DNA of 61,573 nt from a virus (Duplodnaviria > Heunggongvirae > Uroviricota > Caudoviricetes). Each line of letters starts with the position of its first letter. Position 1 is the stretch's first letter. Positions 1 through 30,399 of this stretch are shown in pieces. Below the pieces are notes generated by a model, which did not search any database, was not told the DNA's origin, and was given only the letters and a program-made list of their open reading frames with translations. The position numbers were made by a program, and so were the translations under genes. The stretch lies in the IMG/VR virus record IMGVR_UViG_2778261122_000001, positions 1 to 61,573 of that record, one strand, 5' to 3'.

Positions 1-1028
1 CAGAAATCACTGAGAACATCCCACGCCTTACGCTGTGTGGTCAGCCAGGCATTACAGGTGATGCGCGGCTCCGTGCCGCCAAAACCATTCGGTACCAACT
101 GGTCGCAGTACTGGCCGATAACGTACAGCGCCCATTTGTCCACATCTGCCGCACCAAGACGTTTCCCCATGCCGTAGCGCGGGTGGGTCAGCATATCCCA
201 CAGACACCAGGCCATGTTGTTGCTGTATGCTGGCTTTAACGTTCCGTCCCAGATACCGCTGTATTGCCGCGTCTGCGGGTTATAGTTCGACGGCACCTGC
301 AGAATACGCCCGCGAAGATGATAATTACGGCTCACCTGCTGGCTGCCGAACTGCTCCGAATCCACCTGTACGCCGACCAGTGCCGTGTTCGGGTAGCACT
401 GTTTCACATCGATGATTTCGGTGTATGACGACCAGAGCGTTTTGTTCTGCAGCTGGTCTGTGGTGCTGTCCGGCGTCATCCTGCGCATCCGGATGTTGAA
501 CGGGCGCGGCGGCAGATTATCCACCACTACCGAGGCCAGATACTGCGAGGTGGTTTTGCCCTTAATGGTGATGTCTTTTTCCGTCACCCAGCCACCGTTA
601 CGCTGTATCTGAACCAGCAGGCGAACTTCCGACGGATTCCTGTCACCCTTTGAGGTGGTTTCCACCAGTGCCTGTACACCGAAGGTAAAGCGCAGACGGT
701 CGATGTTTGCAGACGTAATGGTGCGGGTGATCGGCGTGTCATATTTCACTTCCGTACCCAGCACCGTCTCGGAGCCGGAGGATTCAAACCCCTCCGGCGG
801 TGTCTGCTCCTGCTCACCGGCACGGAACACCACCGTGACACCGGAGATGTTGGTATTCCCCTCAGTGTCCAGCACCGGCGTACTGTTCAGCAGCACGCTT
901 TTTAATCCATCCACCGGACCTTCAATCGGCCCTTCGCTGATGGCATCGATCACACTCAGCAGCTGCGTGGATTTCAGGTTATCCTTCGCTTCGCGCGGGG
1001 TATGCCCCTTACTGCTGCCTTTACCCAT
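1..1028 (-). CDS. J: Tail tip host-specificity protein J, N-terminal part (3' end lies beyond window edge)
   Basis: Minus-strand ATG at 1026..1028 preceded by GGAG; translation MGKGSSKGHTPREAKDNLKS matches remembered lambda J N-terminus; not in ORF track because it runs off the edge. Confidence 0.85.
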   Translation of the reverse strand, partial: MGKGSSKGHTPREAKDNLKSTQLLSVIDAISEGPIEGPVDGLKSVLLNSTPVLDTEGNTNISGVTVVFRAGEQEQTPPEGFESSGSETVLGTEVKYDTPITRTITSANIDRLRFTFGVQALVETTSKGDRNPSEVRLLVQIQRNGGWVTEKDITIKGKTTSQYLASVVVDNLPPRPFNIRMRRMTPDSTTDQLQNKTLWSSYTEIIDVKQCYPNTALVGVQVDSEQFGSQQVSRNYHLRGRILQVPSNYNPQTRQYSGIWDGTLKPAYSNNMAWCLWDMLTHPRYGMGKRLGAADVDKWALYVIGQYCDQLVPNGFGGTEPRITCNAWLTTQRKAWDVLSDF

Positions 1029-1088
1029 TCGTCATGCTCCATAAACGACAAAACCGCCCGGAGGCGGTTTCACATAAAACATTTTGCA

Positions 1089-1760
1089 TCAGCGACCAAT
1101 CACCACAACCTGACCACCGTCCCCTTCGTCTGCCGTGCTGATCTCCTGAAAAACCACCCGCGACCCCACACGCATTTCACCGTACAGAACAGGCAAAACA
1201 TTGCCCTGAGCAACCATGTTATCCAGTGAGGAAAAATAGGTGTTCTGTTTGCCGTTATCCGTTGTCTGTGTACGGGGAGTTCTGGCTTTCGGTGCCAGCA
1301 TCTGCGCCACACCACCGAGCACCATACTGGCACCAAGAGAAAACAGGATGCCGGTCATACCACCGGCCCCAATGGCTGCCCCCCATGCTGCAAGGGTGGC
1401 TCCGGCAGTAAAGAATGATCCGGCAATGGCGGCAGCTCCCAGGACAATCTGGAATACGCCACCTGACTTGGCCCCGGCGACTCTGGGAACAATATGAATC
1501 ACAGCGCCATCAGGCAGAGTCTCATGTAACTGCGCCGTTAATCCGGACGTGCTGACATCCCGTCCGGCAATCCGTACCTGATACCAGCCGTCGCTCAGTT
1601 TCTGACGAAACGCCGGGAGCTGTGTGGCCAGCGCCCGGATAGCTTCAGCCCCCGTTTTCACACGAAGATCGATGCGGCGGCCAAATCGTTGCAAATCCCC
1701 GTAAAGGCAGATGCGTGCCATGCCCGGTGACGCCAGAGGGAGTGTGTGCGTCGCTGCCAT
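1089..1760 (-). CDS. I: Tail assembly protein I
   Basis: 223 aa, same length and near-identical to remembered lambda gpI; position between K and J. Confidence 0.9.
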   Translation of the reverse strand: MAATHTLPLASPGMARICLYGDLQRFGRRIDLRVKTGAEAIRALATQLPAFRQKLSDGWYQVRIAGRDVSTSGLTAQLHETLPDGAVIHIVPRVAGAKSGGVFQIVLGAAAIAGSFFTAGATLAAWGAAIGAGGMTGILFSLGASMVLGGVAQMLAPKARTPRTQTTDNGKQNTYFSSLDNMVAQGNVLPVLYGEMRVGSRVVFQEISTADEGDGGQVVVIGR

Positions 1761-2401
1761 TTGTCGGTATACCTCTCTCGTTTGCTCAGTTGTTCAGGAA
1801 TATGGTGCAGCAGCTCGCCATCACCACAGTAAATGGCGGCATGATTCGGCACCGATGAACCAAAACAGCACAGCAGCACATCGCCCGGTTGTGCTGATGA
1901 CAACGCCACCTGATACAGCCCTGTGGCCTCCAGATTATCCAGATAGAGATTCTGACCTGATTTCCACCAGTCATCATGTCGGTAAAAATCCGGCAAATCG
2001 ATACCTGCAAGATGATAGGCATCGCGGAACAGCGTATAACAGTCTGTCACCCCGTGCTCAAAACGCCGCCCGGTGAGATGCGGCACACAGCGGAACTTAT
2101 GAATCACTCCCCGGCAGACCAGCCACCACGGCAAATCACTCTGCACCTGCAGCCGCCTGTCGGCCTCACTCAGCCAGGGCAGACCACCGGGGTGGCTGTG
2201 GACCAGCGCCACAATCTCACCCTGCATTTCTGCCTGCAGCCAGTCTTCCGGCGACATACGGAAATACGCCTCCGGCTCACCGGAGATATTCACGCAGGGA
2301 AAATATCTTTCCCCCTCCGGCGTTCTCGCCACGAAGCCGCACGACTCCGCTGGCGCGCATCGCCGGGCGTGCGCCAGAATCGCTGATTCTGTCTCTGTCA
2401 T
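1658..2401 (-). CDS. K: Tail assembly protein K (peptidase-like)
   Basis: 247-aa ORF overlapping I as in lambda; HSHP and Cys/His motifs of lambda gpK. Confidence 0.85.
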   Translation of the reverse strand: MTETESAILAHARRCAPAESCGFVARTPEGERYFPCVNISGEPEAYFRMSPEDWLQAEMQGEIVALVHSHPGGLPWLSEADRRLQVQSDLPWWLVCRGVIHKFRCVPHLTGRRFEHGVTDCYTLFRDAYHLAGIDLPDFYRHDDWWKSGQNLYLDNLEATGLYQVALSSAQPGDVLLCCFGSSVPNHAAIYCGDGELLHHIPEQLSKRERYTDKWQRRTHSLWRHRAWHASAFTGICNDLAAASIFV

Positions 2402-2406
2402 GGGAT

Positions 2407-3105
2407 TTACTGCGAAAGTTTGTTAATGGAAAGGAAGCCGCCAAAGTTGCCGACGTTATTGCGGAACTTACAGCCACTCAGGCATTTGCTGCATTTATCC
2501 TTCGTGATATCGGACGTCGGCTGATCATATTCATCCGCGACCGCCGGACCGCTATAACCGCACTCATCGCCGCGATAGGTCCAGGTGCAGGTGTTGGCCA
2601 GCATGATACGTCCCGGAAAAACAGCGCCGTCCGTTTCCGTCGGCGTGGACAGTACAAAAGAGGCACTCACCGCGCTCAGTTCGCTGCACTGCTCAATGCG
2701 CCAACGGCTGATCACCTCCTGCTCCGGATCGGCGTCACTGTTTCCGTTGACGAAGTTCACCGCATCCAGAAAACGGGCGTAAACCTTACGCCGGACCACC
2801 GTTCCGCCGACCAGACTCTGCAGATCTTCCGCCATCCCGGTGACCATACCGTACAGGTTAGAAACCGTCAGCGTGGGGCGCGTACTGGTGCCTTTGCCAT
2901 TCAGTTCAAAACCACTCCCCTGAATGGGATACGGCTGATACTGTCGCCCCTGCCAGGTGACCGGCTCACCTTTTTCGTTCTGCTCATTACAGAAAAAATA
3001 ATGTTCTCCACCGACCTCTGTCAGGTCGATTTCCCAGAGCACCACGCTGGCCGACTGCTCCGCACGGGTGCATTCATTCAGTGTTTCCTGCCGGATATCC
3101 TGCAT
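2407..3105 (-). CDS. L: Minor tail protein L
   Basis: 232 aa, lambda gpL length and sequence; C-terminal Cys cluster. Confidence 0.9.
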   Translation of the reverse strand: MQDIRQETLNECTRAEQSASVVLWEIDLTEVGGEHYFFCNEQNEKGEPVTWQGRQYQPYPIQGSGFELNGKGTSTRPTLTVSNLYGMVTGMAEDLQSLVGGTVVRRKVYARFLDAVNFVNGNSDADPEQEVISRWRIEQCSELSAVSASFVLSTPTETDGAVFPGRIMLANTCTWTYRGDECGYSGPAVADEYDQPTSDITKDKCSKCLSGCKFRNNVGNFGGFLSINKLSQ

Positions 3106-3434
3106 CAGTTCACCACCTGTTCAAACTCTGCGCTGAACTCAACACGCAGCATACTGACCCGCGACGACCATTTTGCGCAGGTCACCTTTATCTGCCGCCA
3201 CTCATAAGGCGGCGTCCACAGGAAGGCTTTCCAGCCCCCGTGCTCAGCCAGAAACGACTCCAGCGCCGTGGCCTCCCAACGGGGAACAGAAAGCGTCACG
3301 CTGTACGTTTTCAGGTCGGCATTCAGCCCGGCAGGCGCTCGCTGGGAATAGCCATCACCAAAGCGCACTTTCCTGACGGAAGGGGCCGAAGCCACATCCA
3401 TACCGGGTTTCACTTTCCAGCGGAAGGTCTTCAT
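3105..3434 (-). CDS. M: Minor tail protein M
   Basis: 109 aa, lambda gpM size and position. Confidence 0.9.
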   Translation of the reverse strand: MKTFRWKVKPGMDVASAPSVRKVRFGDGYSQRAPAGLNADLKTYSVTLSVPRWEATALESFLAEHGGWKAFLWTPPYEWRQIKVTCAKWSSRVSMLRVEFSAEFEQVVN

Positions 3435-7586: not shown

Positions 7587-7982
7587 TCACATTTCATAGG
7601 TAATGACATAAGTCAGATCGGCTGAACTCCACAGGCCCGCATCATCGTCGCGCCGGTAGTCATAGCCACTGGCCACCATACTGGTGATCAAATCTGACAG
7701 TGCCGGGATATCGCTCATTACCGGATAAATCCGGGACTCCATCCACGAATCCAGCTCTGAATCCGGCACCTGAGCAGGCAGGAAAACTTCAATATGCAGC
7801 TCCGCCTGCCAGGTATCGCTGTCCAGCTCTTCGCCCGTGTATTCAGCGCCGGTGAGATAAACGGCAATTGCCGGAAAATCCGCCTCATCAAAAACAGCGG
7901 GGCGACCATCAAAAAGCGTCGCCCCGGTGTCATGCTTCTCCAGTGCATCCAGTACGGCTGCTCGGAGTTCAGTATGTTTCAT
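7587..7982 (-). CDS. U: Tail terminator protein U
   Basis: 131 aa, lambda gpU size and position. Confidence 0.9.
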
Positions 7983-8557
7983 CGCTTTATTACCATCCTC
8001 AGTTGATGCTGCAGCGCATAGCCCAGCTCTTTCGGAAGACGCTCACGCCGTATCCGCTCAATATTCTGTTTAAACGCCGTGGTCAGCGGCACCGCCATCG
8101 GAATTTTCACCACATCAATGGGGTAACGGTTTTTCCCGGCCACACGCTGCATGACATGCCAGCGGCCATTTTTCAGTTGCTGAATAAACGCGCCGGGAAT
8201 ACGACGGTTTCCCACCACAAGCACACTGCCGCCACCTTTCAGGGCTGAACGCTGCCCCTTTTTACGACGCCTGCGTCGGGACAGGACAACCCGCGCGTTA
8301 CCCAGCCTGATTACGGGCAAATCCCCCCGGTTAACCTTGATTCTGGCCTGCGGATTTTTGACCGTGGCCCTTTTCAGCCTGGCCCTTTCCTTTACCAGTT
8401 TCCGGCGTACCTTTGTCTCACGGGCAACCTGTGACGCCGACTGCGATATCGCGGATGAAGCAACGCGGTTAATGGCCATTGCTGCGGCACCAGGCACCGC
8501 CGTTTTGCTGATACGGCTGAGGTTTTCAACGGCCTGCTCAAGACCTTTTATGGCCAT
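7979..8557 (-). CDS. Z: Tail completion protein Z
   Basis: 192 aa, lambda gpZ size and position. Confidence 0.9.
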   Translation of the reverse strand: MAIKGLEQAVENLSRISKTAVPGAAAMAINRVASSAISQSASQVARETKVRRKLVKERARLKRATVKNPQARIKVNRGDLPVIRLGNARVVLSRRRRRKKGQRSALKGGGSVLVVGNRRIPGAFIQQLKNGRWHVMQRVAGKNRYPIDVVKIPMAVPLTTAFKQNIERIRRERLPKELGYALQHQLRMVIKR

Positions 8558-8632
8558 ACCTCCTCCTTTCAGCGACGACGGTTAACGGCAGGCGGTACGC
8601 CCCGTCCAAGCCAGAGATGACAGCTTCCGCCA

Positions 8633-8923
8633 TCATCCGGCGAAACCCGGTCTATCCAGATAGTTTTCCTCACCGATGGTCAGCGTGTCTCCACGCCGCA
8701 GCTGCCGCACATCATCAGTCCGGACAAACAGGGACGGGCTGGAGCCTTCAACGCGCACACCCTGTCCGGCATAGCTGATATTTTCAGGGTCATCAAAAAC
8801 ACCACGTATCACAGCACCGGACTGCTCACCGGATGTCATGGTGGCTGACGTTCCCATATACCCGCGTATCGTTTCATCAGCGCGGGCAATGGCAGCATCG
8901 AACAGGTTATCGAAATCAGCCAC
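8633..8923 (-). CDS. FII: Head-tail joining protein FII, apparently truncated by a frameshift (possible pseudogene)
   Basis: N-terminal 90 aa match lambda FII; ORF stops at 96 aa while another frame continues with WIDRVSPDDGGSCHLWLGRGVPPAVNRRR to a stop at 8569..8571 next to the Z start. Confidence 0.7.
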   Translation of the reverse strand: MADFDNLFDAAIARADETIRGYMGTSATMTSGEQSGAVIRGVFDDPENISYAGQGVRVEGSSPSLFVRTDDVRQLRRGDTLTIGEENYLDRPGFAG

Positions 8924-8934
8924 AGCGCCTCCCG

Positions 8935-9333
8935 TTATTGCATTCTGGCCAGGCCACGCTCTGTCATTTCGGCTGCCACACCGGCAGAGACACGAAACGC
9001 CGTTCCCGGCAGCACAAATGCCACAGGTTTATCCCTCGTGGCGTGAAGTGCATCAGTATGCAGCGTCACCAGTGCCACGACCGTGACCAGTTCAGCCGTA
9101 TCCTGAATCACGGTATCCGGCTGCGCTGATACCACCTCATTTTCATGCCCGGTCAGCACATTTTCCGGGCTGAGAGGGGTGTCCTGACCGGCAGTGTCAT
9201 CCGTGTCATCAAGCTCCTCTTCCAGCTCTGCCACACGGAGCGCCAGTTCTTCTTTCGTCCCCGTCAGGCTGACATCACGGTTCAGTTGCTCACCCAGCGA
9301 GCGGAGACGGGCAATCAGTTCATCTTTCGTCAT
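8935..9333 (-). CDS. FI: DNA packaging/head assembly protein FI
   Basis: Start trimmed to MTKDELIARLRSLGEQ, matching remembered lambda FI. Confidence 0.85.
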   Translation of the reverse strand: MTKDELIARLRSLGEQLNRDVSLTGTKEELALRVAELEEELDDTDDTAGQDTPLSPENVLTGHENEVVSAQPDTVIQDTAELVTVVALVTLHTDALHATRDKPVAFVLPGTAFRVSAGVAAEMTERGLARMQ

Positions 9334-16344: not shown

Positions 16345-16521
16345 TGTTCATTCCACGGACAAAAACAGAGAAAGGAAACGACAGAGGCCAAAAAGCCCGT
16401 TTTCAGCACCTGTCGTTTCCTTTCTTTTCAGGGAGTGTTTTAAATAAAAACATTAAGTTACGGCGAAGAAGAACGGAAACGCCTTAAACCGGAAAATTTT
16501 CATAAATAGCGAAAACCCGCG

Positions 16522-16533
16522 AGGTCGCCGCCC
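16522..16533. other. cosN cohesive-end site (cosB between it and Nu1, cosQ on the other side)
   Basis: Plus strand aggtcgccgccc is the reverse complement of the lambda 12-nt cohesive end GGGCGGCGACCT; flanks match lambda left and right ends. Confidence 0.8.
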
Positions 16534-16681
16534 CGTAACCTGTTGGATCGACGGAAAGGACCCAAAAACGAGAATGATTATCACTTACAGCAAGAATCGA
16601 ATCTGATCTATTATGGTGCTTGCTATTATGTGCCGGCACAAGTGCGTCGTTTACCGTCATTTCACACAGAGGCATCATCAA

Positions 16682-16933
16682 ATGAAAATCAGAAATATTC
16701 TCGCTATCTCCCTTGCAACATCATCCTTCAGTTGCCTGGCATTTAAATCCTCGCCCAATGTGCTACCAGGACCAACGAATCAACTAACTGCGGTAGAAAG
16801 TAAAATTATCGGACATTTTTATGCCCCACACAGTGCATTACCCGGAACAACCATCACAGGGACATGTGACGCCTCCCCCGTCCCGGGATGCACCTGTCCG
16901 TTTTGTACTATGCTGCGTAGCCAAAACCGATAA
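16682..16933 (+). CDS. Hypothetical small secreted protein
   Basis: Start trimmed to MKIRNILAISLATSSFSCLA signal-peptide-like N-terminus; no recognised family. Confidence 0.3.
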   Translation: MKIRNILAISLATSSFSCLAFKSSPNVLPGPTNQLTAVESKIIGHFYAPHSALPGTTITGTCDASPVPGCTCPFCTMLRSQNR

Positions 16934-17296
16934 CATCCGCATTTACCTGGTATTCCATGATGAGTTCACGCAGCGACTGATAGAGGAAGGAAAGATGGTT
17001 AGTAAAAACAAGGCGCATTGCCGCCGCATGCTGCAGGCATTGCAACAGACGAGAGCAGGTATTTTTGAGCAGTTGGAAAACTGCCAGCATACTTTGCCCG
17101 AGTATATCGCCATCTCATCGGAAACCAGTGCAACTCTTATTCATCGGGTTCCACCAGAGAAAAAGAAGAAATGAACAGTGAGGCGTTGTGTGGCATACAA
17201 CGCCTTCTTCCATCATTCCTCGTCAGCCATGACAAAAATATAACCGCTGGCTCTTTCATTTTTCTCCTGCTTCCAGCCCCTCTCTACCTGGAAGCA

Positions 17297-17623
17297 TCAG
17301 GGACGTGACGGCGTAAAGATAAATTGTCTCTTCACTCCCTGACAGGGACGATTCTTTTCAAATCGCCATTTCGCCATGGCCTTCACCACTTCATCACGAA
17401 ACAAATTATGAGGCTCTGAGCGGAGAAAAACGATCCGTGTCACAGTCCCATCAGCACCAATATCGAACTTAACCTCAACCAGTCCCTTGATATAATTTGC
17501 TGCAGCATATTCCGGATATCGTGGATACACCGTCACTAATTGCCGGGGCTCATCAGCTTTTTGCTGCGAGCATCCCACTGCCAGGACAGATAACAGAAAA
17601 AGTAGTAAAAGGCGTCTTTTCAT
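17297..17623 (-). CDS. Lipoprotein with TonB C-terminal-like domain (lambda right-end envelope protein type)
   Basis: Start trimmed to MKRRLLLLFLLSVLAVGCSQQ lipobox; position between bor and cos. Confidence 0.5.
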   Translation of the reverse strand: MKRRLLLLFLLSVLAVGCSQQKADEPRQLVTVYPRYPEYAAANYIKGLVEVKFDIGADGTVTRIVFLRSEPHNLFRDEVVKAMAKWRFEKNRPCQGVKRQFIFTPSRP

Positions 17624-18105
17624 TTTTATTCCTACGGGTCTTATTCTGACAATATATCCTGTGTTCCAGACTGCCACATCACCACATCCTGTGCCATTAT
17701 CTGACTCACATTACATACATCGCATCGGGATACAGTAGTAGCACTTTCTGTAATACAGCTTCCGGTTTCTTCCACCATCGCACCGGGATAAACCCGCGAA
17801 TCATTAACGCGGTAAAAACTCGGTGTGCATCGTTTTTGATTATTCCCGCACACTCACGCAGAAGGAATTCCCCGTCGGGCTACGGTCATGGTTAATGCGG
17901 GAATACGGCGACGATACAGCGCAGCTAAAAGGGTAATGGACGGATAGACCGGTTTATTTCATTCCACAGGATTCTGAGTGTCCCCAACTTCCTCCAATAG
18001 TCTGAGCGTACACCTATATAGTTTTAATTTTCATCAATCCATTTAACTATCGTTTAATTGTTGTCACATAGGATTCTGCCGTTTTTAACAATGCAGGATA
18101 ATAAG

Positions 18106-18399
18106 ATGAAAAAAATGTTGTTTTCTGCCGCTCTGGCAATGCTTATTACAGGATGTGCTCAACAGACGTTTACTGTTGGAAACAAACCGACAGCAGTAAC
18201 ACCAAAGGAAACCATCACCCATCACTTCTTCGTTTCGGGAATTGGACAGGAGAAAACTGTTGATGCAGCCAAAATTTGTGGCAGCGCAGAAAATGTTGTT
18301 AAAACAGAAACCCAGCAAACATTCGTAAATGGATTGCTCGGTTTTATTACTTTAGGCATTTATACTCCGCTGGAAGCGCGTGTGTATTGCTCACAATAA
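18106..18399 (+). CDS. bor: Bor lipoprotein (serum-resistance lysogenic conversion protein)
   Basis: Start trimmed to MKKMLFSAALAMLITGCAQQTFTV; matches remembered lambda Bor; opposite strand to late genes as in lambda. Confidence 0.85.
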   Translation: MKKMLFSAALAMLITGCAQQTFTVGNKPTAVTPKETITHHFFVSGIGQEKTVDAAKICGSAENVVKTETQQTFVNGLLGFITLGIYTPLEARVYCSQ

Positions 18400-18430
18400 T
18401 TGCATGAGTTGCCCATCGATATGGGCAGCT

Positions 18431-18907
18431 CTATCTGCACTGCTCATTAATATACTTCTGGGTTCCTTCCAGTTGTTTTTGCATAGTGATCAGCCTCTCT
18501 CTGAGGGTGAAATAATCCCGTTCAGCGGTGTCTGCCAGTCGGGGGGAGGCTGCATTATCCACGCCGGAGGCGGTGGTGGCTTCACGCACTGACTGACAGA
18601 CTGCTTTGATGTGCAACCGACGACGACCAGCGGCAACATCATCACGCAGAGCATCATTTTCAGCTTTCGCATCAGCTAACTCCTTCGTGTATTTAGCATC
18701 GAGTGCATCAGCAGCACGCTGGCGCTGCTGCATGTCAGTAATGGTGGCGGTCGCCTGCTTCAGCTCACTGACTTTTTTATCACGCTGTTCTTTATAGGCG
18801 ATGGCGTTATCACGGTAATGATTGACCGCCCACGACAGGCAGACGATGATGCAGATAACCAGAGCATAAATAATCGCGGCGACTCTGCTCACTGATCTAT
18901 CCCCCAA
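18431..18907 (-). CDS. Rz: Spanin inner-membrane subunit Rz
   Basis: N-terminal TM segment, coiled coil, C-terminus matches lambda Rz. Confidence 0.85.
18490..18672 (-). CDS. Rz1: Spanin outer-membrane lipoprotein Rz1, embedded in Rz
   Basis: 60 aa, lipobox VVVGC, proline-rich, embedded +1 frame. Confidence 0.8.
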
Positions 18908-19422
18908 CAGGCTAATGCGCTTTCCTGGTCACGACGAATAACCTGCCCATAGCAGTTATTTGAACGTATGCGGCAATCGCGCCCACCATCTTTTATCCAC
19001 CAACGAATCGCCTCGCATGCACCCTTACGATCACCGGCATTCAGCCGCTTATAAAACGTCGACGGGAAACACTTACCGGGGCCAATGTTATAGGGACAAA
19101 ATGACGCTATACCCGCTTTCTGTGGTTCGGTCAGAGGTACTTTAATATTGCGCTCCACCCATGCCAGCGCCTTATCACGTTCAATAGCGTTAACCTGGTC
19201 GCATTTTTCCTTCGACAGCTTCATTCCCGGTATGACGGGCTTACCATCCACCATTGTGGCACCACGACAGATGGTCCATATACCGGAACCATCGCGGTAT
19301 GCCGTAGTGTGGTTACCCTCTTTTTCATCCAGAAACTGGTCAAGTATTTGAGGAGCAGACGCGCCTGCAGCAATCAGCGCCAGAACAGCAGCTGACAGGC
19401 CGTATTTGATTTTTGCGCTCAT
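18889..19422 (-). CDS. R: Endolysin, T4-lysozyme-type with N-terminal signal-anchor (SAR-like)
   Basis: 177 aa; hydrophobic N-terminal segment then lysozyme domain; resembles Qin RrrQ. Confidence 0.8.
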
Positions 19423-19477
19423 GGATATTTATCAGGATGCTACCAATGAAAGATACTGGAAAGCCAACTGCAAAAAG

Positions 19478-19792
19478 CTAACAACCCGTAATCGAGTTAT
19501 CAGAACTGTTAATTTTTATGGTATACCGCACCTTTGAACAGGGGCGCGTTTCTGGCAACAGCTCGTCCCCTTCACATAACCCGGCAGCAACATCCAGGAA
19601 GACCTGTCTGATGCTCCTTCTGGCTGCTGCCTCATAAAACTCCAGCGCGGCACCTTCAACACGGTCCAGCGAGATGTCCAGGTCAAAAATTTCACCGTCA
19701 AAGCGTTTTTTGTCCCGTAACGCTAAAGTTACCGTAACTTTATTCTCAAAATTGCGGATCCCTTTCACAATCAGTTCATAGTTTTGAGTCAT
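19478..19792 (-). CDS. Hypothetical protein between holin and endolysin
   Basis: 104-aa ORF tightly packed between S and R; family not confidently recognised. Confidence 0.5.
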   Translation of the reverse strand: MTQNYELIVKGIRNFENKVTVTLALRDKKRFDGEIFDLDISLDRVEGAALEFYEAAARRSIRQVFLDVAAGLCEGDELLPETRPCSKVRYTIKINSSDNSITGC

Positions 19793-19796
19793 TGAA

Positions 19797-20012
19797 TTAC
19801 TCTTCCCGTGCAGCCTTACGCTTGTCTTCTTTAATCTTGAAATAAAGGTTTGTCAGATACGTCAGCAAGCCAAATACCAGACTACCCAGCACACCTATTG
19901 CCGCCCACTGTGAGGGCGTGACTTTATCGAGCAACTGTAAAAACCAGTACCCGGCACTACCTGCTGAGGTGCCATAGGCGACACCCGTTGTTAACTTATC
20001 CATGGATTTCAT
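19797..20012 (-). CDS. S: Class II holin (phage 21 S-type pinholin)
   Basis: 71 aa, two TM segments, MKSMDK dual-start motif, charged C-terminus. Confidence 0.85.
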
Positions 20013-20078
20013 AACCCCACCTCGCAGATGCGGGTGCTGTGTAATGGAAATAAAAAGGCCACCTGCGTGGCCACCAGA

Positions 20079-21131
20079 TTATTTCCCCACCAGCTCGTTT
20101 ATCTCTTTCACTGTCTGGTTAAACCGCTCTGACTCAAGCTCAACACCTAAGGCCCGACGCCCCAGCGCCATTGCTGCTTTTATTGTGGAACCGGATCCCA
20201 TAAAAAAATCAGCAACCAGATCACCAGGTCGACTACTGGCATTGATTATTTGCCTGAGCATATCCGCCGGTTTCTCACACGGATGTTTACCCGGGTAGAA
20301 CTGAACGGGTTTATGCATCCAGACATCGGTATAAGGCACGGAGACTGATACGGAGAAATAGCGCCGGAGAGATTTAAACTCATCCAGCAATTCAGAATAT
20401 TTGCGATTCAGTGAATCATAAGATGCCACCAGCTGGTGGTGTGGTTGTTCCAGTTGTTGTTCCTGAAACTTCTCTGCCGCTATACGGGAAAACAGTGCCT
20501 GTAACTTCCGATAGTCAGCCTCATTCGGCAACTGCCACTGACTGGCACCAAACCAGTGGGAAACCATATTTTTCTTACCTGTGGCTTCGGCAATTTGTTT
20601 TGCCGTTATACCCAGTTCGGCACGAGCATCCCTGAAATACGATATCAGCGGTGCCATTATGTGCTGTTTGAGTTCCCTTTCTTTTGCCGCATAGCTGTCA
20701 CTTTTGCCGCGATATGGCCCCTGGTAATGTTCAGCAAACAGAACGCGCTCTGTGGCAGGAAAATATGCGCGCAGACTTTCTTTATTACACCCATTCCAAC
20801 GTCCGGACGGCTTCGCCCAGATGATATGGTTAAGCACGTTGAAACGTTCACGCATCATAATCTCAATATCAGATGCCAGGCGATGCCCACAGAACAGGTA
20901 AAGGCTTCCGGCAGGTTTCAATACCCGCCAGAACTGGGCCAGACAGTGGTCCAGCCACTTAAGGTAATCTTCGTCCCCTTTCCACTGATTGTCCCAACCG
21001 TTGGGTTTCACCTTGAAGTAAGGCGGATCGGTAACAATCAGGTCAATGGAATCATCAGGCAGGGACTGAATAAAATGCAGGCAATCAGCGTTGATTAAAT
21101 CAACACTGTTTATTTTTACAGTATTTTTCAT
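20079..21131 (-). CDS. DNA methyltransferase (amino-MTase, DPPY motif)
   Basis: DLIVTDPPY near N-terminus and FFMGSGST AdoMet motif near C-terminus (motif IV before motif I). Confidence 0.8.
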   Translation of the reverse strand: MKNTVKINSVDLINADCLHFIQSLPDDSIDLIVTDPPYFKVKPNGWDNQWKGDEDYLKWLDHCLAQFWRVLKPAGSLYLFCGHRLASDIEIMMRERFNVLNHIIWAKPSGRWNGCNKESLRAYFPATERVLFAEHYQGPYRGKSDSYAAKERELKQHIMAPLISYFRDARAELGITAKQIAEATGKKNMVSHWFGASQWQLPNEADYRKLQALFSRIAAEKFQEQQLEQPHHQLVASYDSLNRKYSELLDEFKSLRRYFSVSVSVPYTDVWMHKPVQFYPGKHPCEKPADMLRQIINASSRPGDLVADFFMGSGSTIKAAMALGRRALGVELESERFNQTVKEINELVGK

Positions 21132-21281
21132 GGATCAGTAAGCGTAACTCTGGTAGGCTCACTCTGCTTTTGCGCTAAAGCAGTGGGCCGTGGTTCGCTT
21201 GTGACCAGTAAGCATGAGCGAATGGCTGGCAGGTGCTACCAACACCCACCAGCCGCCCATTTTCACAGCAGGAAACCGCCA

Positions 21282-21509
21282 TTACTGGCAGCGTCTGAAT
21301 TTATTCCCGTACCCGCCGTTATCCTTCGCCAGACCCGCCAGAACTAACTGAGTCAGTATTAACTGGCACCGGGCTTCGCTTACTCCGGTAGTTCTCGTCA
21401 TCATGCGTGGCGTTACCCACTTGTCAGCAGGTAAGAAATGAAGGACTGCGGCGGCGGTTTCTGTCATATCTTGCTGTTTTAGCATGTCTTTTTCCCTTCT
21501 GGTTAACAT
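21282..21509 (-). CDS. Hypothetical small protein
   Basis: 75-aa ORF upstream of the MTase; no recognised family. Confidence 0.3.
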   Translation of the reverse strand: MLTRREKDMLKQQDMTETAAAVLHFLPADKWVTPRMMTRTTGVSEARCQLILTQLVLAGLAKDNGGYGNKFRRCQ

Positions 21510-21755
21510 GACATACCAATAACTCTTGTCTAAAAAGCCAGCAAGATAAAAAGTCAGTATTCACGACCACCAGCGTGTTTACTGTACTGCACCAAGTTTA
21601 CAGGTACAAAAAAACCGCTCAGCGGCGGGTTTAAGTTGTGTGGCGAAGTAACCATTCTTAACAGCATATTTGATTTTTTACGATTGTAAACGGTTGATTA
21701 TTCATCTCCAATAAAAATAATTGTGTGGGTATGCCCTTAACAATGGATAAGAAAC

Positions 21756-22202
21756 ATGAATAAAATGACTGTACTATTACTTAGCGCAACTATCATTTCA
21801 GGTTGTACTTCTTCCGTACCATTGATAAAGAAAACTCAATCAGGAAAACCTGAGGGGGTTTATCAAAATACGACAAAAGATAAAGTCAAAGATGCCCTTG
21901 TGAATTACTGCAATAGTAGAGGGTTGATAATTTACAACGCGGATAACAGCAGTGTTATATGTGGTAAAGAACTGGAAGGCGGCTCTGCTGTTTTCGGACA
22001 AATGTTAATCGGCAATGCCTATTCAACAACCCCGGTATCAAAAGTCAGATTTACTATCGCTCAAGTTAATAACGATACAAAAGTGTGGGCCGATATGTGG
22101 ATGGAAACTCAAATGGCAATGGGGCAAGTACAACAAATGGCTATAACAGACAACGCAAGCAAAAACACTATCCAACAACGTCTTGATGAGTTAAAACCTT
22201 AA
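21756..22202 (+). CDS. Lipoprotein of unknown function (insertion gene)
   Basis: MNKMTVLLLSATIISGCTSS signal peptide with lipobox; lies in AT-rich insertion. Confidence 0.6.
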   Translation: MNKMTVLLLSATIISGCTSSVPLIKKTQSGKPEGVYQNTTKDKVKDALVNYCNSRGLIIYNADNSSVICGKELEGGSAVFGQMLIGNAYSTTPVSKVRFTIAQVNNDTKVWADMWMETQMAMGQVQQMAITDNASKNTIQQRLDELKP

Positions 22203-22429
22203 GTCAATTAATTACATAAAATGGGGAGAGAAAATCGACTCCCCACACATTAAACTGATTTAATTACCTGTACTAGCTATAACTCCAACTGACAATTTGA
22301 GTAACCAGAACGAAATCAAGTTTGACAGCCCGCTTTGAGAGAAAAGCAAAAAATACGCTGCTGTACGGCTGATAAAAGAAACTAAGAATGCAAATTACCA
22401 GCCTGAAGACCATCGTTATGCCAGTACCA

Positions 22430-23692
22430 CTATATATCCCAGATCTCGCCATTATAAAGATGCTCGCTAATCTTTGGTGGATTTTTCTTAACATTAGGGT
22501 GACTCGCCAAAATGAGTCTTAATGTCCTGATAGCAACATAGGCCTTTATAACAATATCCCTTTGTTGTTTGAAATACTCCTGATTGAAGTTATTGTTATC
22601 GATGGCATGTGCTGGTTTTTGTCTAAGTTGCCTTACCTTTCTAAAGGTGTCAATCATATCTTTAACTGGCGCAGGATCTGTTGGCTGGAAATATTTATCA
22701 AGCCATGACTCAAGTATTTGTATAGTGCCTTTAGGCCTTACGACTATTTTCCCATCCTCGCGCTCCTCTTCAATTTCAAGCTCCACATCATCCTCGAAGA
22801 ATTTCTTATTAAGATTGTCGGACATCATTTTATCCAACAAAAGCATGAAATTATTAAATTCTGAACGAGTTGGTCGCAAAAGAAACCCGAACTCTTTAGG
22901 CATGTCATCGCTGTAATCTTTTCTAAAAAGTTCAGCCTTTCCTATTAACACGCTCATTTTATTAATTATTTTAAGTTCTTCCGTAAATGCACTAAAAATA
23001 GAAATTTTAGTCCCCCAAGCTCCTAATATGCTTGCAGCATAGTAATCGGGATGCAACTTTATATCTCCTTTTACTTCTTTCGCTGCCCAAACATTTTGGT
23101 GTTCAGGACTGAGATCACTCAGGTATCTCAAGAAAACTGCAACATATCTATTTAGACTGTCATCATAAGCAAACCCAAATGTTTTAAGCAATATTTGATC
23201 GTGTTCAGGAATATTGTCTGATTCATAATACTCATCCGTAATAGATATTTCCCCATGTATAAAGTCTGTAAAGTATGAATAACGTGGATCATTTCGGTAG
23301 TATTCCAAAACAGACAAATCAAAAGTTCTATAGTCAAATTGTCCCGCACCTCTTGCTAGCTCCATTTCATATGGTGACTTACTATAAGCAGAAAGCTTAC
23401 TAGATTTGGCTAGCATATTTTCATGGGGATATAAGCATATGTAATCTAAACTCTCTGAATCATCGAAATTCTTAAGGATATTATCCTTGGGGATTTTTGA
23501 AAACGCTTTAATATGAGGGTTATCCCCAAAACAAGCAGTTAAAATATCATCTTCGATTCCTTTTCTAACCAAAACTTTGAAAGTTTCGCTTTTGATATCG
23601 AAAAGACCATCTAACTTATAAATAGGCAATCCATTAAAATCACCTGATGAAAAATATTGTTCCTCGACTATTTCATATATTTCTTTAATCAT
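22430..23692 (-). CDS. Hypothetical 420-aa protein in AT-rich insertion downstream of Q
   Basis: Long uninterrupted ORF with AT-rich codon usage unlike flanking genes; no motif recognised. Confidence 0.6.
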   Translation of the reverse strand: MIKEIYEIVEEQYFSSGDFNGLPIYKLDGLFDIKSETFKVLVRKGIEDDILTACFGDNPHIKAFSKIPKDNILKNFDDSESLDYICLYPHENMLAKSSKLSAYSKSPYEMELARGAGQFDYRTFDLSVLEYYRNDPRYSYFTDFIHGEISITDEYYESDNIPEHDQILLKTFGFAYDDSLNRYVAVFLRYLSDLSPEHQNVWAAKEVKGDIKLHPDYYAASILGAWGTKISIFSAFTEELKIINKMSVLIGKAELFRKDYSDDMPKEFGFLLRPTRSEFNNFMLLLDKMMSDNLNKKFFEDDVELEIEEEREDGKIVVRPKGTIQILESWLDKYFQPTDPAPVKDMIDTFRKVRQLRQKPAHAIDNNNFNQEYFKQQRDIVIKAYVAIRTLRLILASHPNVKKNPPKISEHLYNGEIWDI

Positions 23693-24093
23693 CTCACAAT
23701 CCCAATATATGGTTGTTTACAATTTGTTTAAATAGTCACCAGCCAAGCTAAGCGATTGTATATTCATTACGTTCGAAACTATTTATTGTGTAACAATATC
23801 AGCTAAGTTACTGGCTATAGTATATGAGTTTAAAATTCTGCGCTCTCATAAGCATACTATATATAGTTATACCCCGAGTGATTGTGCTAAGCAACTGATT
23901 GCGCCCTACTAGATTTTATTTTTATGGTAAAATGTAGACCTCACTTCTAGCTTGGAGTTATTCCCTATTTATTAAGTACTACGTCCATATATGGCATAGT
24001 GCTACCTGTCAGCTCAGGTTTGGCACTGTGCCATAATAGCTGTTTCAGCTCACGTCTGAACAAATATAAATAACCCCCTCACTTAGAAGTGTT

Positions 24094-24459
24094 CTAACGG
24101 TCCATTTCTAGCTCAATTTCTAACATCATTAACATGCCATCAACTACACCTTCAGCCTTTTGCAATAAACGCCCAACCCAGCAATCAGAACGCCCATGTT
24201 TACGGGCAAGCGCCATAAACGTCATACCACCTACATAATAATCCACTAATAAATCGTGCAAATCGCTGTTGTTCTTTTTCAGGCGAGCCATGCACCCACA
24301 AATGATCATCGCGTCATCGTCACAACATTGCGGGCGGGATTTTACTTTTGAAGGGATTAGTCCTTTAAATCCTGCAGCAATAGACGACCAGGTGACATCC
24401 TCGTGATTATTTGCCACCCATGCACCCCAACGTTCAAGAACCATTTGAATATCACGCAT
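24094..24459 (-). CDS. Q: Late-gene antiterminator Q, phage 82/QuuD type
   Basis: Start trimmed to [14 protein letters not shown]; Cys-rich core as in remembered DLP12 QuuD. Confidence 0.8.
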
Positions 24460-24476
24460 CAACTTTCTCCACAAAA

Positions 24477-25472
24477 TCAGGCCAGCACGCCAATTGCCAG
24501 CGCACGATCGATAAAACGAAATATCAGCTCCAGCTGGGAGCCATACATCTCTTCAAATGCCACGGTATCCGCATGCAGCTCGTCGTGATGCTTTCTGCAC
24601 AAAGGCAACACAAAGAGGTCATGCGCTTTTGTACCCATTCCACCCTGACCGTGACCTATCAGGTGGTGGGGATCATCAGCAGGCTTTCCACAACATGCAC
24701 ACGGCTGTGTCTTAACCCAGCGCGTGTACTTTTCATTAACCCAGCGGCGACGTTTTGGGCGTAACATAAAAGACTCCGGCGACTCTGGATCCACTTTCAG
24801 CGCCAGCACCTTTTTCGCTTTATCCTGGATAATGCTGGTGGCAGGAACCGAAGGAACAAGGTCACTCTCCCGGGTGACAGACGGCACAACAGGCTTCGGT
24901 AATCTCAGTGCCTTACGGGCTGCACTTTCCGGTAAGGCATCCGCCAGGTCATTACGAACCAGCCACCAGCACAGTTCCGGCATTGTCACAACGTGACTAT
25001 CATCAAAACCGAGATCACGGCGCACAACAGATAACACCCAGCGGGCACAGCTATCCGTTGCCATTGATTCCAGCCGTTCCGTGAACTGATCGCGCAGCTG
25101 GTTATCGCAGTGCCAGCACAGACGGATTGCGCCCGGCGCGTGTCGCATTGTGGTCATGTTCTCGCTGTGCCAGTCGGAATGAGGCCACTGGCAGCCTTTT
25201 TCACGAAGTAACCAGCTTTCAAGACATTCCACGCCACCAGCACGACGGATCACTGCCTCATTGCGGAACACGGCCCGAACGGCAGGATCATCCGCCAGCG
25301 GTTGTGATGCCGCCGGAACGGCACCACTGGCGAAAGATGAATAACGTTCCGGCTCAGGCTCCAGCAGGACACGCCCCTGCATAAACAGGGGCATCAGCTC
25401 TGAACCTGGCCTGAACAATACGATCCCCATACGCGGGGCAATTTCAGGGGTCAGTAGTGCTCTCACGGTCAC
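24477..25472 (-). CDS. nin-region protein with C-terminal Cys/His-rich HNH-like motif
   Basis: 331 aa; C-terminal [28 protein letters not shown]...CRKHHDELH. Confidence 0.55.
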
Positions 25473-25473
25473 C

Positions 25474-26271
25474 TCAATGAACGGTATCGAGCAGCTTTAA
25501 CAGCTCAGGGAATCGGGATTCGAAGAAATGCGGCTGCGTCTCGCGCGGATTTGCGGGACTGGTGATATTCTTGCCGAACATGCAGCCTTTCGCTGTCAGC
25601 GACCAGAATTTTTTGATGTTGTTAATCGCGGTACGGCTGTATCGTTCGCGCTGCTCGACGATCCCCAGCTTCACCATCTGGTGATATGCCTGATTAGCTG
25701 TCAGGCGGATACCATACTGCTTCAGCAGTGCACTCAGTGACAGCGTGGGGCGGCTTGAGCCATCAGGCGCGTCAGCAGGAGCATCAATGGCATAGCGCGG
25801 TGCCAGATTCGGTAAGCCAACAGCCTCCTGGAGTTTCTGACAGGCACCAAGCACTGAAGAGTTAGACAGGTTTAATTCCCGGTGCATAAAGTCCAGCAGA
25901 ATCACACCAGCCTGCATCTTGTCAGCAGCCTGTCCGGATAATTTTTCCGGTGCGCTGGTTACCATGTCGAAAGTACGGATCACCTTCAGATGGAATGACG
26001 GGCTGATCCACATTGCATAGGCATACACCAGTTCTTTGCAGACATACGTCCCCTGGTTATTTCCGCCACGAATAACGTTAACTGGCTCTATATTGACCGA
26101 GTTGCAAATCTGCAACTCGCTTATTAAACGCTCAGTTTGCTCATTGCGGAGCCAGAATGCAGGCTTATGCTTATCCAGAGAACCAGCAGCCCTGTGCAGA
26201 TCGTTCAGGCTGTAACGCCCATAAGCATCACGACGAACTTCAATACCATCAATGACCATCAGATTATTCAT
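25474..26271 (-). CDS. KilA-N domain protein
   Basis: N-terminal KilA-N-like pattern (YSLNDLHRAAG...KPAFWLRNEQT). Confidence 0.65.
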   Translation of the reverse strand: MNNLMVIDGIEVRRDAYGRYSLNDLHRAAGSLDKHKPAFWLRNEQTERLISELQICNSVNIEPVNVIRGGNNQGTYVCKELVYAYAMWISPSFHLKVIRTFDMVTSAPEKLSGQAADKMQAGVILLDFMHRELNLSNSSVLGACQKLQEAVGLPNLAPRYAIDAPADAPDGSSRPTLSLSALLKQYGIRLTANQAYHQMVKLGIVEQRERYSRTAINNIKKFWSLTAKGCMFGKNITSPANPRETQPHFFESRFPELLKLLDTVH

Positions 26272-26290
26272 ACTTCGTTTCTCCTCTTAA

Positions 26291-26671
26291 TCAGGCGGCT
26301 GCACCCGCCGTTTTCTCGTACTTACTGATAGTTATCTCGACCTTCCCTTCCGGGATAACCGGTCCCCACTCCACCAGCATTCTTTTCACCTGGCTGTCGT
26401 CTTCCCACACACCCGCGTGGGTCAGGGCGTCAAACAGCGCCTTGTTATAGTTGTCCAGATCGCGGATCCGGTTATCCGGAGGAAACAACACGATCTCCAC
26501 TGAAGCAGGTGCCGACGTTGGTTTCGGCAGACGATGTAACTGCTCAACTATTGCTGTGCACGCCGCACTCTGGAATTTTCGCCCCGCCGCGCTTATCAGG
26601 CTCTTACCAGCAAATGCCCCTTTGTTGGGGTAGGTGTTCACGCTGGGTGGAAAAGGCAGAATCAGCGTCAT
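26291..26671 (-). CDS. rusA: RusA-family Holliday junction resolvase
   Basis: 126 aa with the RDLDN catalytic motif and RusA-like size. Confidence 0.75.
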   Translation of the reverse strand: MTLILPFPPSVNTYPNKGAFAGKSLISAAGRKFQSAACTAIVEQLHRLPKPTSAPASVEIVLFPPDNRIRDLDNYNKALFDALTHAGVWEDDSQVKRMLVEWGPVIPEGKVEITISKYEKTAGAAA

Positions 26672-26994
26672 ACTTTCAGCCCCCTCTCATGTAACCAGTG
26701 GGCTGCACGCAGCCTGGCGTTTTCCTCACCAGCAAGCAGTGCGCGGATAATCCCGGCCGCCTCGCTGTCGTCGTCCTTCACCGCGGTATGAAGCGTGATG
26801 CCCCGGGCCACGCCACGCTTTATCGTGATGACGCCTTTTTTCTCCAGTGCGCGAAGATGCTCCACCGCTGCATTCACTGAACGGTATCCCAGCATGGTAG
26901 CCACCTCCTGATTGGTTGGCGGGAAGCCACGTTCTTTCTGGTAAGAAATCAGCATATCCAGCACCTGCTGCTGGCATTGAGTTAACGTCGTCAT
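26668..26994 (-). CDS. LexA N-terminal-type DNA-binding domain protein without peptidase domain
   Basis: Start trimmed to MTTLTQCQQQVLDML; GFPPTNQEVATMLGYRSVNAAVEHLRALEKKGVITI follows the LexA winged-helix pattern; ends at ~108 aa. Confidence 0.65.
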   Translation of the reverse strand: MTTLTQCQQQVLDMLISYQKERGFPPTNQEVATMLGYRSVNAAVEHLRALEKKGVITIKRGVARGITLHTAVKDDDSEAAGIIRALLAGEENARLRAAHWLHERGLKV

Positions 26995-27245
26995 TAAGCC
27001 CCCACGTAATTCCCTGACAGATACCACTCTTCACCCGATGCAGCGCGCTTGCTGCTTTTCCGTAAGCACCGCTCACGATGCGCCAGAAAATTGTTTCGTT
27101 CTGGCTGGGAGTGGCTTTCACGGAATGCCTCCATCCACACCGTTGCAGCACGACGGTATAAACCCCTGGACTCCAGTTCTTCAGCATGGCGGGTCAGGCA
27201 CAAAATCACCCGGGGGTCGTTAGTGCCGACATAGAAATTGCGCAC
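26994..27245 (-). CDS. Hypothetical protein
   Basis: 83-aa ORF, stop/start overlap with neighbours. Confidence 0.35.
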   Translation of the reverse strand: MRNFYVGTNDPRVILCLTRHAEELESRGLYRRAATVWMEAFRESHSQPERNNFLAHRERCLRKSSKRAASGEEWYLSGNYVGA

Positions 27246-27481
27246 AGGTCTGGTTTCACAAACTGGTTCCGCTCCTGCGATATCTCAGCCTGGCGCGGGA
27301 AATGTCTGCGTGTATCCTCTTCACAACGGTGAGCCACACGCCCACTCTGACGTAACTTGCTTGCTGACTGCAGAACTCGCTGCCGTGAGTAACCTGCAAA
27401 AGCATCCGCAATGTCTCCGGAAGTACACCCCGGATGGGCTTCAATGAATTTCTGAACGTCATTCAAAAGGCTCATGATCAC
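27206..27481 (-). CDS. Hypothetical protein
   Basis: 91-aa ORF in operon context. Confidence 0.35.
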   Translation of the reverse strand: MIMSLLNDVQKFIEAHPGCTSGDIADAFAGYSRQRVLQSASKLRQSGRVAHRCEEDTRRHFPRQAEISQERNQFVKPDLCAISMSALTTPG

Positions 27482-28419
27482 CCCCTGAATCCTGCCGGGA
27501 TCTGGCTGTAGTCCACATTGTCGTAACTGGCTTTGAAGTACGGGTCTTCGCGTTTTTCTGTGTACGTGCTGACGGACGGCGATAAGCGCAGGGAAAGTTC
27601 ATCCCATTTTTCCCGCAGCTTCGACGGGCTGAACACGTTACGGCACCAGAACGGGTCGCGGCTGACGCGGCTGTACATCTCGCAGATTTGTTTGTGGGTA
27701 CGACCGTCCTGTACACACATCAGGCGAATTTCATTTGCCCAGGCTGTCCAGTTCGGTTCTTTGGGACGAACCACCTCGCCGTCACATTCGGCGGCCTGCT
27801 CGTACAGGGCGATGATTTTTTTCCAGAGCCACTGTGCGCAGGTCAAATCATCCTGCGTTCCCCACTGGCGCTTTTTAGGGCTGAATACAACCGCATCAGG
27901 ATGGCGAGTTAAAAAATCCTGTTCAGCCTTCTGCATGTCCGGTTGCGAAGCGTCCGGACGAGAAGGTTTTTTATCTGACGGATCATGTTTTGATTTTACT
28001 GACGGATCCCCGCCAGATTCTGACGGGTGAAAACCCGCTTTTTTGCCAGATTTCGACGCATCAAATTTTGACGGGTCAGATTTTGATGCGTCAGATTTTG
28101 ACGGGTCAGAATCTGACAGTTGAGAAAATGCCGCTGCCTGAAGCTTCGCAACGTTAAGCTGATAAACATTCGACGCATTGCGGTTACCCTGGCGACGCGC
28201 CTTACGCGTTAACCAGCCTTCTGCTTCCAGCCGTGCGATAGCCGTTCTGACGGTGCTCATCCCCGCGCCAATCTGGCGGGCAATGGTTTCAATTGATGGC
28301 CAGCACACACCTTCGTCATTACTGAAATCAGCCAGGCGGGCCATAATTGCCACGCTGGATAACTTCATGCCTGACGCAGCGCAACCATCCCATACATAGC
28401 CGGTTAATTTAGTGCTCAT
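27478..28419 (-). CDS. Replication initiator protein (origin iterons inside the gene)
   Basis: 313 aa; N-terminal HTH-like region, linker SDPSKSDASKSDPSKFDASKSG encoded by the DNA iterons; lambda-O-like architecture. Confidence 0.65.
   Translation of the reverse strand: MSTKLTGYVWDGCAASGMKLSSVAIMARLADFSNDEGVCWPSIETIARQIGAGMSTVRTAIARLEAEGWLTRKARRQGNRNASNVYQLNVAKLQAAAFSQLSDSDPSKSDASKSDPSKFDASKSGKKAGFHPSESGGDPSVKSKHDPSDKKPSRPDASQPDMQKAEQDFLTRHPDAVVFSPKKRQWGTQDDLTCAQWLWKKIIALYEQAAECDGEVVRPKEPNWTAWANEIRLMCVQDGRTHKQICEMYSRVSRDPFWCRNVFSPSKLREKWDELSLRLSPSVSTYTEKREDPYFKASYDNVDYSQIPAGFRG
27970..28130. repeat. Origin iterons: about eight direct repeats of a ~15-16-bp unit (ATTTTGACGGGTCAG-like)
   Basis: Visible tandem units gattttgacgggtcag, attttgatgcgtcag, attttgacgggtcag, aatctgacag inside the replication gene. 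Confidence 0.7.
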
Positions 28420-28428
28420 GACCGACCT

Positions 28429-28767
28429 CTATTTCCCTGAATTTACGACGAAACTGTTCGAGCGGGCTGAAGCACTCATGCTCATAGCCTTCGCGGAGGT
28501 AGATAACCCGTTGTGTTTCCGGCTCCCAACGAATGACTCTGACGGGCACTCCGTAGTGATCTTTGAACCAGCGGTTAACTTGTCGCAAAGGACTGTCTCC
28601 TTTTGCCGGTTGAAATCGCCCACAGCCCACTCTGCAAAGCTGTGGGTTACAATTTCCCTGTCACCTGGTACATTCACTGCATAGCAATACTCCACCTTCG
28701 CTTTTCCACCCGGTACAGGAAGTGCAATCAGTTGCGAGCGACGGTAGTGTGTTGTTAAACTGTTCAT
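28429..28767 (-). CDS. Hypothetical early protein
   Basis: 112-aa ORF with ATGA overlap to upstream gene; alternative 73-aa ORF 28409..28630 cannot be excluded. Confidence 0.3.
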
Positions 28768-29315
28768 GCGTTAGTTTCTCCACAGTCACGACACGCCACG
28801 GCGCCCGGAGCTGCACACTCGCGGGCGTCATTACTTTCTGAAATGCAAAAAATTTTGTAGACCAGTGCTGCATGCTCCTGCAGCTTCGAAATTGAGAGGT
28901 ACAGCTCGTCATTAATTGCTGTCTTCTCATGCGGTTCCACTACACCGTCTTCGATTGCTGAACGAATCTGTTTTGAATAACTGCCGATCTGTTCAATGAC
29001 TTCCAGCAGACGCTGGTTAATATCGGCGTTGTCCACATCCTCGACGTCAGGAAGAGACACAAAGACGCCATTTGCAGACTGCGCCACAGCATCAGCAATG
29101 AAGTGAGTTCCACCAGCACGTTGCAAAATCATTGCCCATCCCAGCGGGAAAATCTGATCGCCATCGGCACGAAGGCGGTTAAATAATGCGTTCTCTGTTA
29201 CATCCAGCCAGTCAGCAGCTTCAGCGTAACCCCCCGGCAACGCTGCGATAGTTTTTCTGACAGCTTTCACGTACCACTCAGGCTGTTTGTCTACTTTCCA
29301 GTGATGCTTACCCAC
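28764..29315 (-). CDS. Hypothetical early regulatory protein at the cII position
   Basis: 183-aa ORF directly downstream of cro; positional inference only. Confidence 0.4.
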
Positions 29316-30358: not shown

Positions 30359-30377
30359 CTTCAATATCCCATCCATC

Positions 30378-30399
30378 GGCCACCGAAAGGTGGCTTTTT
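30378..30399 (+). terminator. Intrinsic terminator downstream of cI
   Basis: GGCCACC-gaaa-GGTGGC hairpin followed by TTTTT. Confidence 0.6.

Follow-up and report, generated by a model that had tools for sequence, protein, structure and literature searches.

The head-tail joining gene FII of the lambda-like prophage in the window (the whole stretch of 61,573 nucleotides analyzed here, whose source record is contig NNWE01000030.1 of assembly GCA_002486805.1) is likely to carry a genuine, vertically inherited +1 insertion of an A, with FII being most likely non-functional as it stands. FII lies on the minus strand and starts with the GTG at position 8923. One extra A on the coding strand (a T on the plus strand) at position 8661 changes AACT-TCTGG into AACTATCTGG, and this base is the single gap column in an alignment that also contains lambda and the prophages of E. 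coli 95-3322 and 09A19CPO009, the two closest ones. Aside from it, FII of the window is 100% identical across the gene to FII of 95-3322 and 09A19CPO009. The inserted A has a T on either side, so that no homopolymer is extended. According to the list of open reading frames (ORFs), the resulting frame (8633..8923, minus strand) runs from the GTG through 88 native residues, up to ...TIGEEN, continues with 8 out-of-frame residues (the YLDRPGFAG tail), and stops at a TGA; its 96-amino-acid product ends in ...TIGEENYLDRPGFAG. The remainder of the gene (8569..8660, minus strand) comprises the codons for residues 89-117 (WIDRVSPDDGGSCHLWLGRGVPPAVNRRR) and the native TGA at 8569-8571. This out-of-frame part was recovered in the ORF 8569..8673, whose translation ends with the FII C terminus, and by tblastn, in which lambda FII was matched with residues 1-88 in one frame and residues 85-117 in a second frame. 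The second-frame stop is located 11 nt before the ATG of gene Z (8557), a spacing as in lambda. Between the premature stop and the start of Z, an untranslated stretch of 75 nt is left (8558..8632, minus strand), at whose end the ribosome-binding site of Z, AAGGAGGAGG, is intact. Removal of the A yields a 117-amino-acid protein that aligned over residues 1-117 to lambda gpFII (PDB 1K0H) with 3 substitutions (E=6.7e-76); the intact protein of the relatives is WP_000752996.1, which is common in E. coli prophages.

A preliminary description of this DNA had reported that FII stops at 96 amino acids and leaves a 75-nt gap before Z, that another frame carries the lambda FII C terminus with a stop at 8569-8571, and that a one-base insertion switches the frame within 8655..8668. 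The sequence and its comparison with lambda bear out these statements, and the alignment with lambda FII, which had been named there as a check, contains exactly one extra base. The observation of the frameshift is thus confirmed in position, nature, and consequence. The uninserted string that had been expected there, GAAAACTTCTGG, needs a qualification, since it matches the closest relatives whereas lambda itself has GAAAATTTCTGG.

Single-base indels are a classic assembly artifact, and we therefore weighed the reading that FII of this strain is intact and the extra A an artifact of the window assembly. Other members of the same clone were found by exact look-up of the tape-measure protein of the prophage. 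An identical prophage with the same insertion is present in the separately deposited assemblies GCA_002510785.1 and GCA_014967805.1 as well as in the Logan re-assembly of the raw reads of SRR6727437, on a contig common to four samples. These clone members are 100% identical to the window, with 0 mismatches over 7 to 10 kb, and the insertion is found in all four of the clone's contigs that reach FII. An error would hence have to have produced the same base in at least three separately deposited assemblies and in the Logan re-assembly, in a sequence context that is no homopolymer; furthermore, a rare stochastic artifact would not hit every member of the clone yet appear in 0 of the 3,614 FII copies inspected elsewhere (see below). 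In favor of an error are the facts that the support comes from assemblies, not reads, and that no gene is called at the FII position in GCA_014967805.1 (PGAP-style annotation), which shows only that the annotators saw a broken frame. As judged from the assemblies, it is very likely that the extra A is a real mutation, and a sequencing or assembly error is highly improbable. Of the two options that the preliminary description had left side by side, a defective prophage or a sequencing error, the presence of the same insertion in separate assemblies and in Logan favors a real mutation.

The state of the surrounding morphogenesis module was assessed by tblastn with 21 lambda products, from nu1 to J. 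All products from nu1 to I except FII were retrieved at full length and ungapped with 86 to 100% identity, in agreement with the earlier remark that the other lambda-type structural ORFs have their canonical length, and FII was the sole one that was split over two frames; the J homologue runs off the contig end. Both neighbors of FII are intact. The upstream gene FI, encoding the DNA packaging chaperone (8935..9333, minus strand, 132 amino acids), aligned over residues 1-132 with 94% identity to lambda FI and matches Pfam Packaging_FI, and the downstream tail completion gene Z (7979..8557, minus strand, 192 amino acids) aligned over residues 1-192 with 99% identity to lambda Z and matches Pfam Minor_tail_Z. 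The longest frame of the K homologue (1661-2401) has 247 codons and is called in this way in related contigs, and lambda K is annotated at 199 amino acids; since residues 1-199 of lambda K align to 2257..1661, this difference reflects the choice of an upstream start and no lesion. The sequence of the early/lysis half of the prophage (16400-34331) is not lambda-like. It encodes a DNA methylase (20079-21131), an S24-type repressor (29666-30358), and the integrase (33168-34331), and CII-like, O-like, KilA-N, and DUF968 proteins, a lysozyme, Rz (90% to lambda), and bor (91%) are also encoded there. No tRNA genes were found in the whole window. Apart from FII, the lambda-like prophage looks complete, and its morphogenesis module appears to be without any further lesion.

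A second, P22-like prophage (35018-61573) adjoins the integrase of the lambda-like prophage. It encodes a tailspike with a P22 head-binding domain (35018-36676), the P22 coat protein (47772-49025), the portal (50028-52226), the terminase (52228-53643), and a Q protein that is 99% identical to lambda Q (57821-58441), together with a Bro-N protein, an injectosome protein, a stabilization protein, and nin genes. The closest uninserted relatives of the lambda-like prophage, those of E. coli 95-3322 and 09A19CPO009 (locus 138-2626), are themselves remnants: the gene for the terminase small subunit is followed by an opposite-strand DUF2971 gene and by a major capsid gene without its N terminus, so that the head genes from A to C or D are missing, and FII is intact.

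The consequence of the frameshift was deduced from the structure of the lambda neck. In the cryo-electron microscopy model, gpFII consists of an N-terminal helix (residues 4-24), a beta-sandwich (25-41 and 63-107), and a beta-hairpin (46-62), and its C-terminal loop (108-117) contacts the O-loop of the tail terminator gpU (PMC10721106). The truncation removes residues 89-117, i.e., the segment 89-107 of the beta-sandwich and the entire gpU-contacting loop. In accordance, Pfam family PF05354 (Phage_attach) matches the 96-amino-acid product (E=5.8e-16) at residues 8-88 only, corresponding to profile positions 4-81 of 99. Compared with lambda gpFII (the "stopper," Hc1; PF05354; PDB 1K0H; cryo-electron microscopy entries 8K37 and 8XOW), we are dealing with the same gene at the same FI-FII-Z position: homology to PF05354 and 1K0H is evident, and the genes from nu1 to I are collinear with those of lambda. 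In contrast to lambda, the frame breaks after residue 88 and residues 89-117 are not made in frame, so that no single frame of about 117 codons spans the complete beta-sandwich together with the C-terminal loop. Because the frame ends at 96 amino acids and the native sequence at residue 88, FII of the window is a pseudogene of the gpFII family rather than a working member, and because part of the beta-sandwich and the gpU contact loop are removed, the truncated protein is most likely non-functional.

Lambda FII amber mutants are defective in head-tail joining; they accumulate filled heads and free tails that do not join and that are rescued by added gpFII. By analogy, the same phenotype would be expected of the window prophage, with the difference that the amber mutants are laboratory nonsense mutants, whereas the lesion described here is a natural frameshift in a resident prophage. 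Upon induction, the prophage would probably produce DNA-filled heads and tails unable to join, as suggested by the parts of gpFII that the truncation removes, unless another prophage supplies gpFII. The complete E. coli genomes contain up to 5 copies of FII each, and an intact FII of another lambdoid prophage in the same cell, of whose genome a single contig is visible here, could bypass the defect. The P22-like prophage alongside encodes no FII homologue and hence cannot complement the defect. The earlier statement that the prophage cannot make infectious particles is therefore sound as far as it follows from the lost residues and has to be qualified by a possible bypass through another FII. 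Genes downstream of FII would be little affected, as Z retains its own strong ribosome-binding site (AGGAGG). Late lambda transcription is antiterminated. A large polar effect on Z was considered and is unlikely, given the untranslated gap of 75 nt and the intact Z ribosome-binding site. We also discarded the idea that the C-terminal piece is translated by itself, starting at the GTG at 8673, which has no Shine-Dalgarno sequence, opens only 34 codons, and gives a product with no Pfam match.

To determine how frequent the insertion is, a 60-nt probe centered on it was compared with 2,783 complete E. coli genomes, in which it had 3,614 matches. The insertion was present in none of these 3,614 FII copies: every match had a one-base gap, and the best identity was 98.3%. 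The insertion-bearing 36-mer was likewise absent in exact-pattern scans from GTDB (one genome per species), IMG/VR, and the JGI metagenomes, where the scans of the viral and metagenome sets allowed three degenerate positions; the uninserted 36-mer, used as a control, was retrieved from more than 120 IMG/VR viral contigs. The preliminary description had named a conserved natural variant as the finding that would speak against a lesion; as none of the 3,614 copies from complete E. coli genomes has the insertion, the shorter FII is no such variant. In the population, the insertion is a rarity, not a feature by design.

The same insertion was nevertheless found on two other prophage haplotypes, each represented by one assembly. 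The exact 96-amino-acid product is also encoded in Logan SRR23524060, whose prophage has 229 mismatches to the window in 6.3 kb (96.2% identity); compared over 6,291 nt with its uninserted twin, that of E. coli Z0117EC0098, this prophage has 1 single nucleotide polymorphism (SNP) and the same A as the only differences. In addition, we predicted the insertion products on other FII protein backgrounds and looked them up in the protein collection. The product on the E71 background was found in Logan SRR30192802, with the same DNA at the site and on a haplotype with 35 differences over 1,355 positions with respect to the window and 54 with respect to SRR23524060; the products on the V13 and C14 backgrounds were not found by exact look-up. 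For each of the three alleles, the 354 nt that are left without the A match perfectly those of uninserted alleles, which were seen in 3, 8, and 6 other fetched loci, respectively. As controls, 17 other frameshift products were looked up, namely, +/-1 changes in the T5, A4, and G4 runs (7 products), other palindrome-perfecting insertions with 6-bp arms (4 products), G, C, or T at the same site (3 products), and random insertions (3 products). None of the 17 was found in these look-ups, which cover exact sequences on a single protein background, that of the window, and to which assemblies that annotate pseudogenes contribute no protein. Other frameshift forms of FII occur on other backgrounds. 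An example is the 127-amino-acid form P0039, which results from the loss of one G in a GGGG run (G4 to G3) and represents a cluster of 76 sequences. Since such natural forms exist, FII pseudogenes are not rare in E. coli prophages. Proteins P0056, P0057, and P0063 are among the further forms, some -1 events are located near CGGGTTTCG, and one IMG/VR locus contains an 84-amino-acid allele with a different, early FII frameshift.

As judged from these sequences, recurrent mutation at one site would be the most economical reading of the three haplotypes. Alternatively, the insertion may have arisen once and spread by short-patch homologous recombination between co-resident lambdoid prophages, with no hotspot involved. 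Lambdoid prophages often recombine, as many as 5 FII copies may share an E. coli genome, and the three inserted haplotypes have in common an identical tract of 72 to 106 nt around the insertion, which fits a patch of that size. However, this route requires two conversion tracts, both with ends within about 41 and 32 nt of the insertion; a single SNP separates SRR23524060 from its uninserted twin in 6.3 kb, nothing else having been imported; and for each inserted allele, the entire gene is, but for the A, the same as in an existing uninserted allele. A single origin followed by spread is consequently regarded as unlikely.

The occurrence on three haplotypes, while the 17 other frameshift products were not found, could also be read as survival of a tolerable frameshift, i.e., full-length gpFII would be made by programmed or leaky +1 frameshifting, or the 96-amino-acid form would itself work, and the prophage would be infectious. 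Two further observations are compatible with this: a rare Arg codon, AGA, follows just after the insertion in the new frame, and only 6 copies of gpFII are needed per virion (PMC10721106), so that a low level of recoding might suffice. Several findings oppose it. (i) The form is not conserved, as it is absent from the 3,614 copies, the IMG/VR viral contigs, and the phage records listed. (ii) The two frames overlap by about 48 nt, and none of the codons there would permit re-pairing of the P-site tRNA in the +1 frame. (iii) There is just one slippery heptamer, G GGT TTC, and its phase suits a -1 shift, by which ribosomes would enter the third frame and not that of FII. (iv) The run of A's is only 4 long, which is too short for transcriptional slippage. 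(v) The product made is devoid of about a third of the beta-sandwich and of the gpU-contacting loop. As neither conservation among relatives nor a correctly phased slippery sequence in the overlap was detected, the FII shift is not programmed. In the lambda tail assembly chaperone G/G-T, a conserved programmed -1 shift takes place at a slippery heptamer in the right phase and yields a needed fusion protein. The window resembles this system in having two overlapping frames in a lambda morphogenesis gene but differs from it in that the shift is rare, would have to be +1, and has no slippery site. A functional variant is thus very improbable, and there is equally little reason to believe that the phage stays viable through low-level +1 recoding and that the allele persists for this reason.

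As to the origin of the inserted allele, simple slippage does not explain the A, because there is a T on both sides of the inserted base. A script-based scan revealed that the insertion perfects a quasipalindrome: wild-type CT-TC-tg-GATAG becomes CTATCtgGATAG, a 12-nt perfect inverted repeat (CTATC-tg-GATAG; 8652..8663, minus strand) with two 5-bp arms and a 2-nt loop. It is the best inverted repeat through the inserted base, and none passes through the site in the restored sequence. Approximately 3.9% of random non-homopolymer insertions in FII would likewise perfect a repeat. In E. coli, template switching at quasipalindromes is well established as a cause of mutational hotspots (PMC7202029). 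In FII, a replication template switch within CT-TC tg GATAG may have copied the extra A opposite the T of GATAG, which would give the perfect repeat. This candidate mechanism, which we propose tentatively on the basis of the sequence, agrees with a gain in inverted-repeat complementarity that slippage does not explain and with recurrence at the same site, the latter allowing for short gene conversion as well. All three events occurred in I91-type alleles, which carry GATAG and make up about half of the sampled alleles, whereas V91 alleles have GGGTAG and thus no partner arm; the restriction to I91 is weak backing for a template switch. The general quasipalindrome explanation is weakened by the fact that four other palindrome-perfecting FII insertions, with arms of 6 bp, are absent from the protein collection. 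The DNA hairpin predicted for either strand, with and without the A, has an energy of -1 to -2 kcal/mol and a z score of about 0 and is no better than that of shuffled sequences; an intermolecular switch would need no loop. No second copy of the mutated 17-mer that might have served as ectopic donor was found in the window, and GAAAATATCAG, a direct quasi-repeat farther upstream, was dismissed as the target of a template switch, since the product would have the wrong length.

Template-switch mutations associated with quasipalindromes were reportedly described by Ripley in 1982 and are said to account for a hotspot in E. coli thyA. The FII change is similar to such mutations in that it is not due to slippage, perfects an imperfect inverted repeat, and recurs at one site. 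It differs from the known hotspots in that no stable hairpin is predicted and other candidate sites in the gene are not hit, and its arms measure only 5 bp, compared to the 18-bp quasipalindrome of the lacZ QP reporters (PMC7202029). Whether the insertion reflects a natural, sequence-programmed mutational hotspot that repeatedly and specifically knocks out head-tail joining in I91 lambdoid prophages is accordingly doubtful, although possible. If such a hotspot exists, a single short motif within a structural gene would influence which of the prophages of wild E. coli turn defective. A simple experimental system for this question would be the I91 allele of FII, in a form that has the GATAG arm and in one that lacks it.

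The FII lesion is a case of ordinary prophage decay by pseudogenization, with a modestly interesting mutational twist. No new biological system is revealed; what is added is the observation of the same non-slippage insertion on three prophage haplotypes, which provides a natural example, small but testable, of a mutational bias toward one site during prophage decay. For annotation, FII should be called a frameshifted pseudogene here, and the lambda-like prophage, whose head/tail module is otherwise complete, should be rated as one that probably cannot form infectious virions; tools that consider a prophage "intact" on the basis of gene content would misjudge it. Lastly, lambda-type FII sequences were also encountered in records filed under unrelated organisms, namely, MW057783.1 ("Campylobacter phage CJLB-4"), P0005 (Listeria monocytogenes), and P0017 (Bacillus thuringiensis Sbt003). 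MW057783.1 has a length of 48.4 kb, its FI-FII-Z segment is 96.8% identical to the query, the same value as for lambda, and its coordinates are about 80 bases off those of lambda. These misfiled records look like contamination of the source data with lambda DNA.
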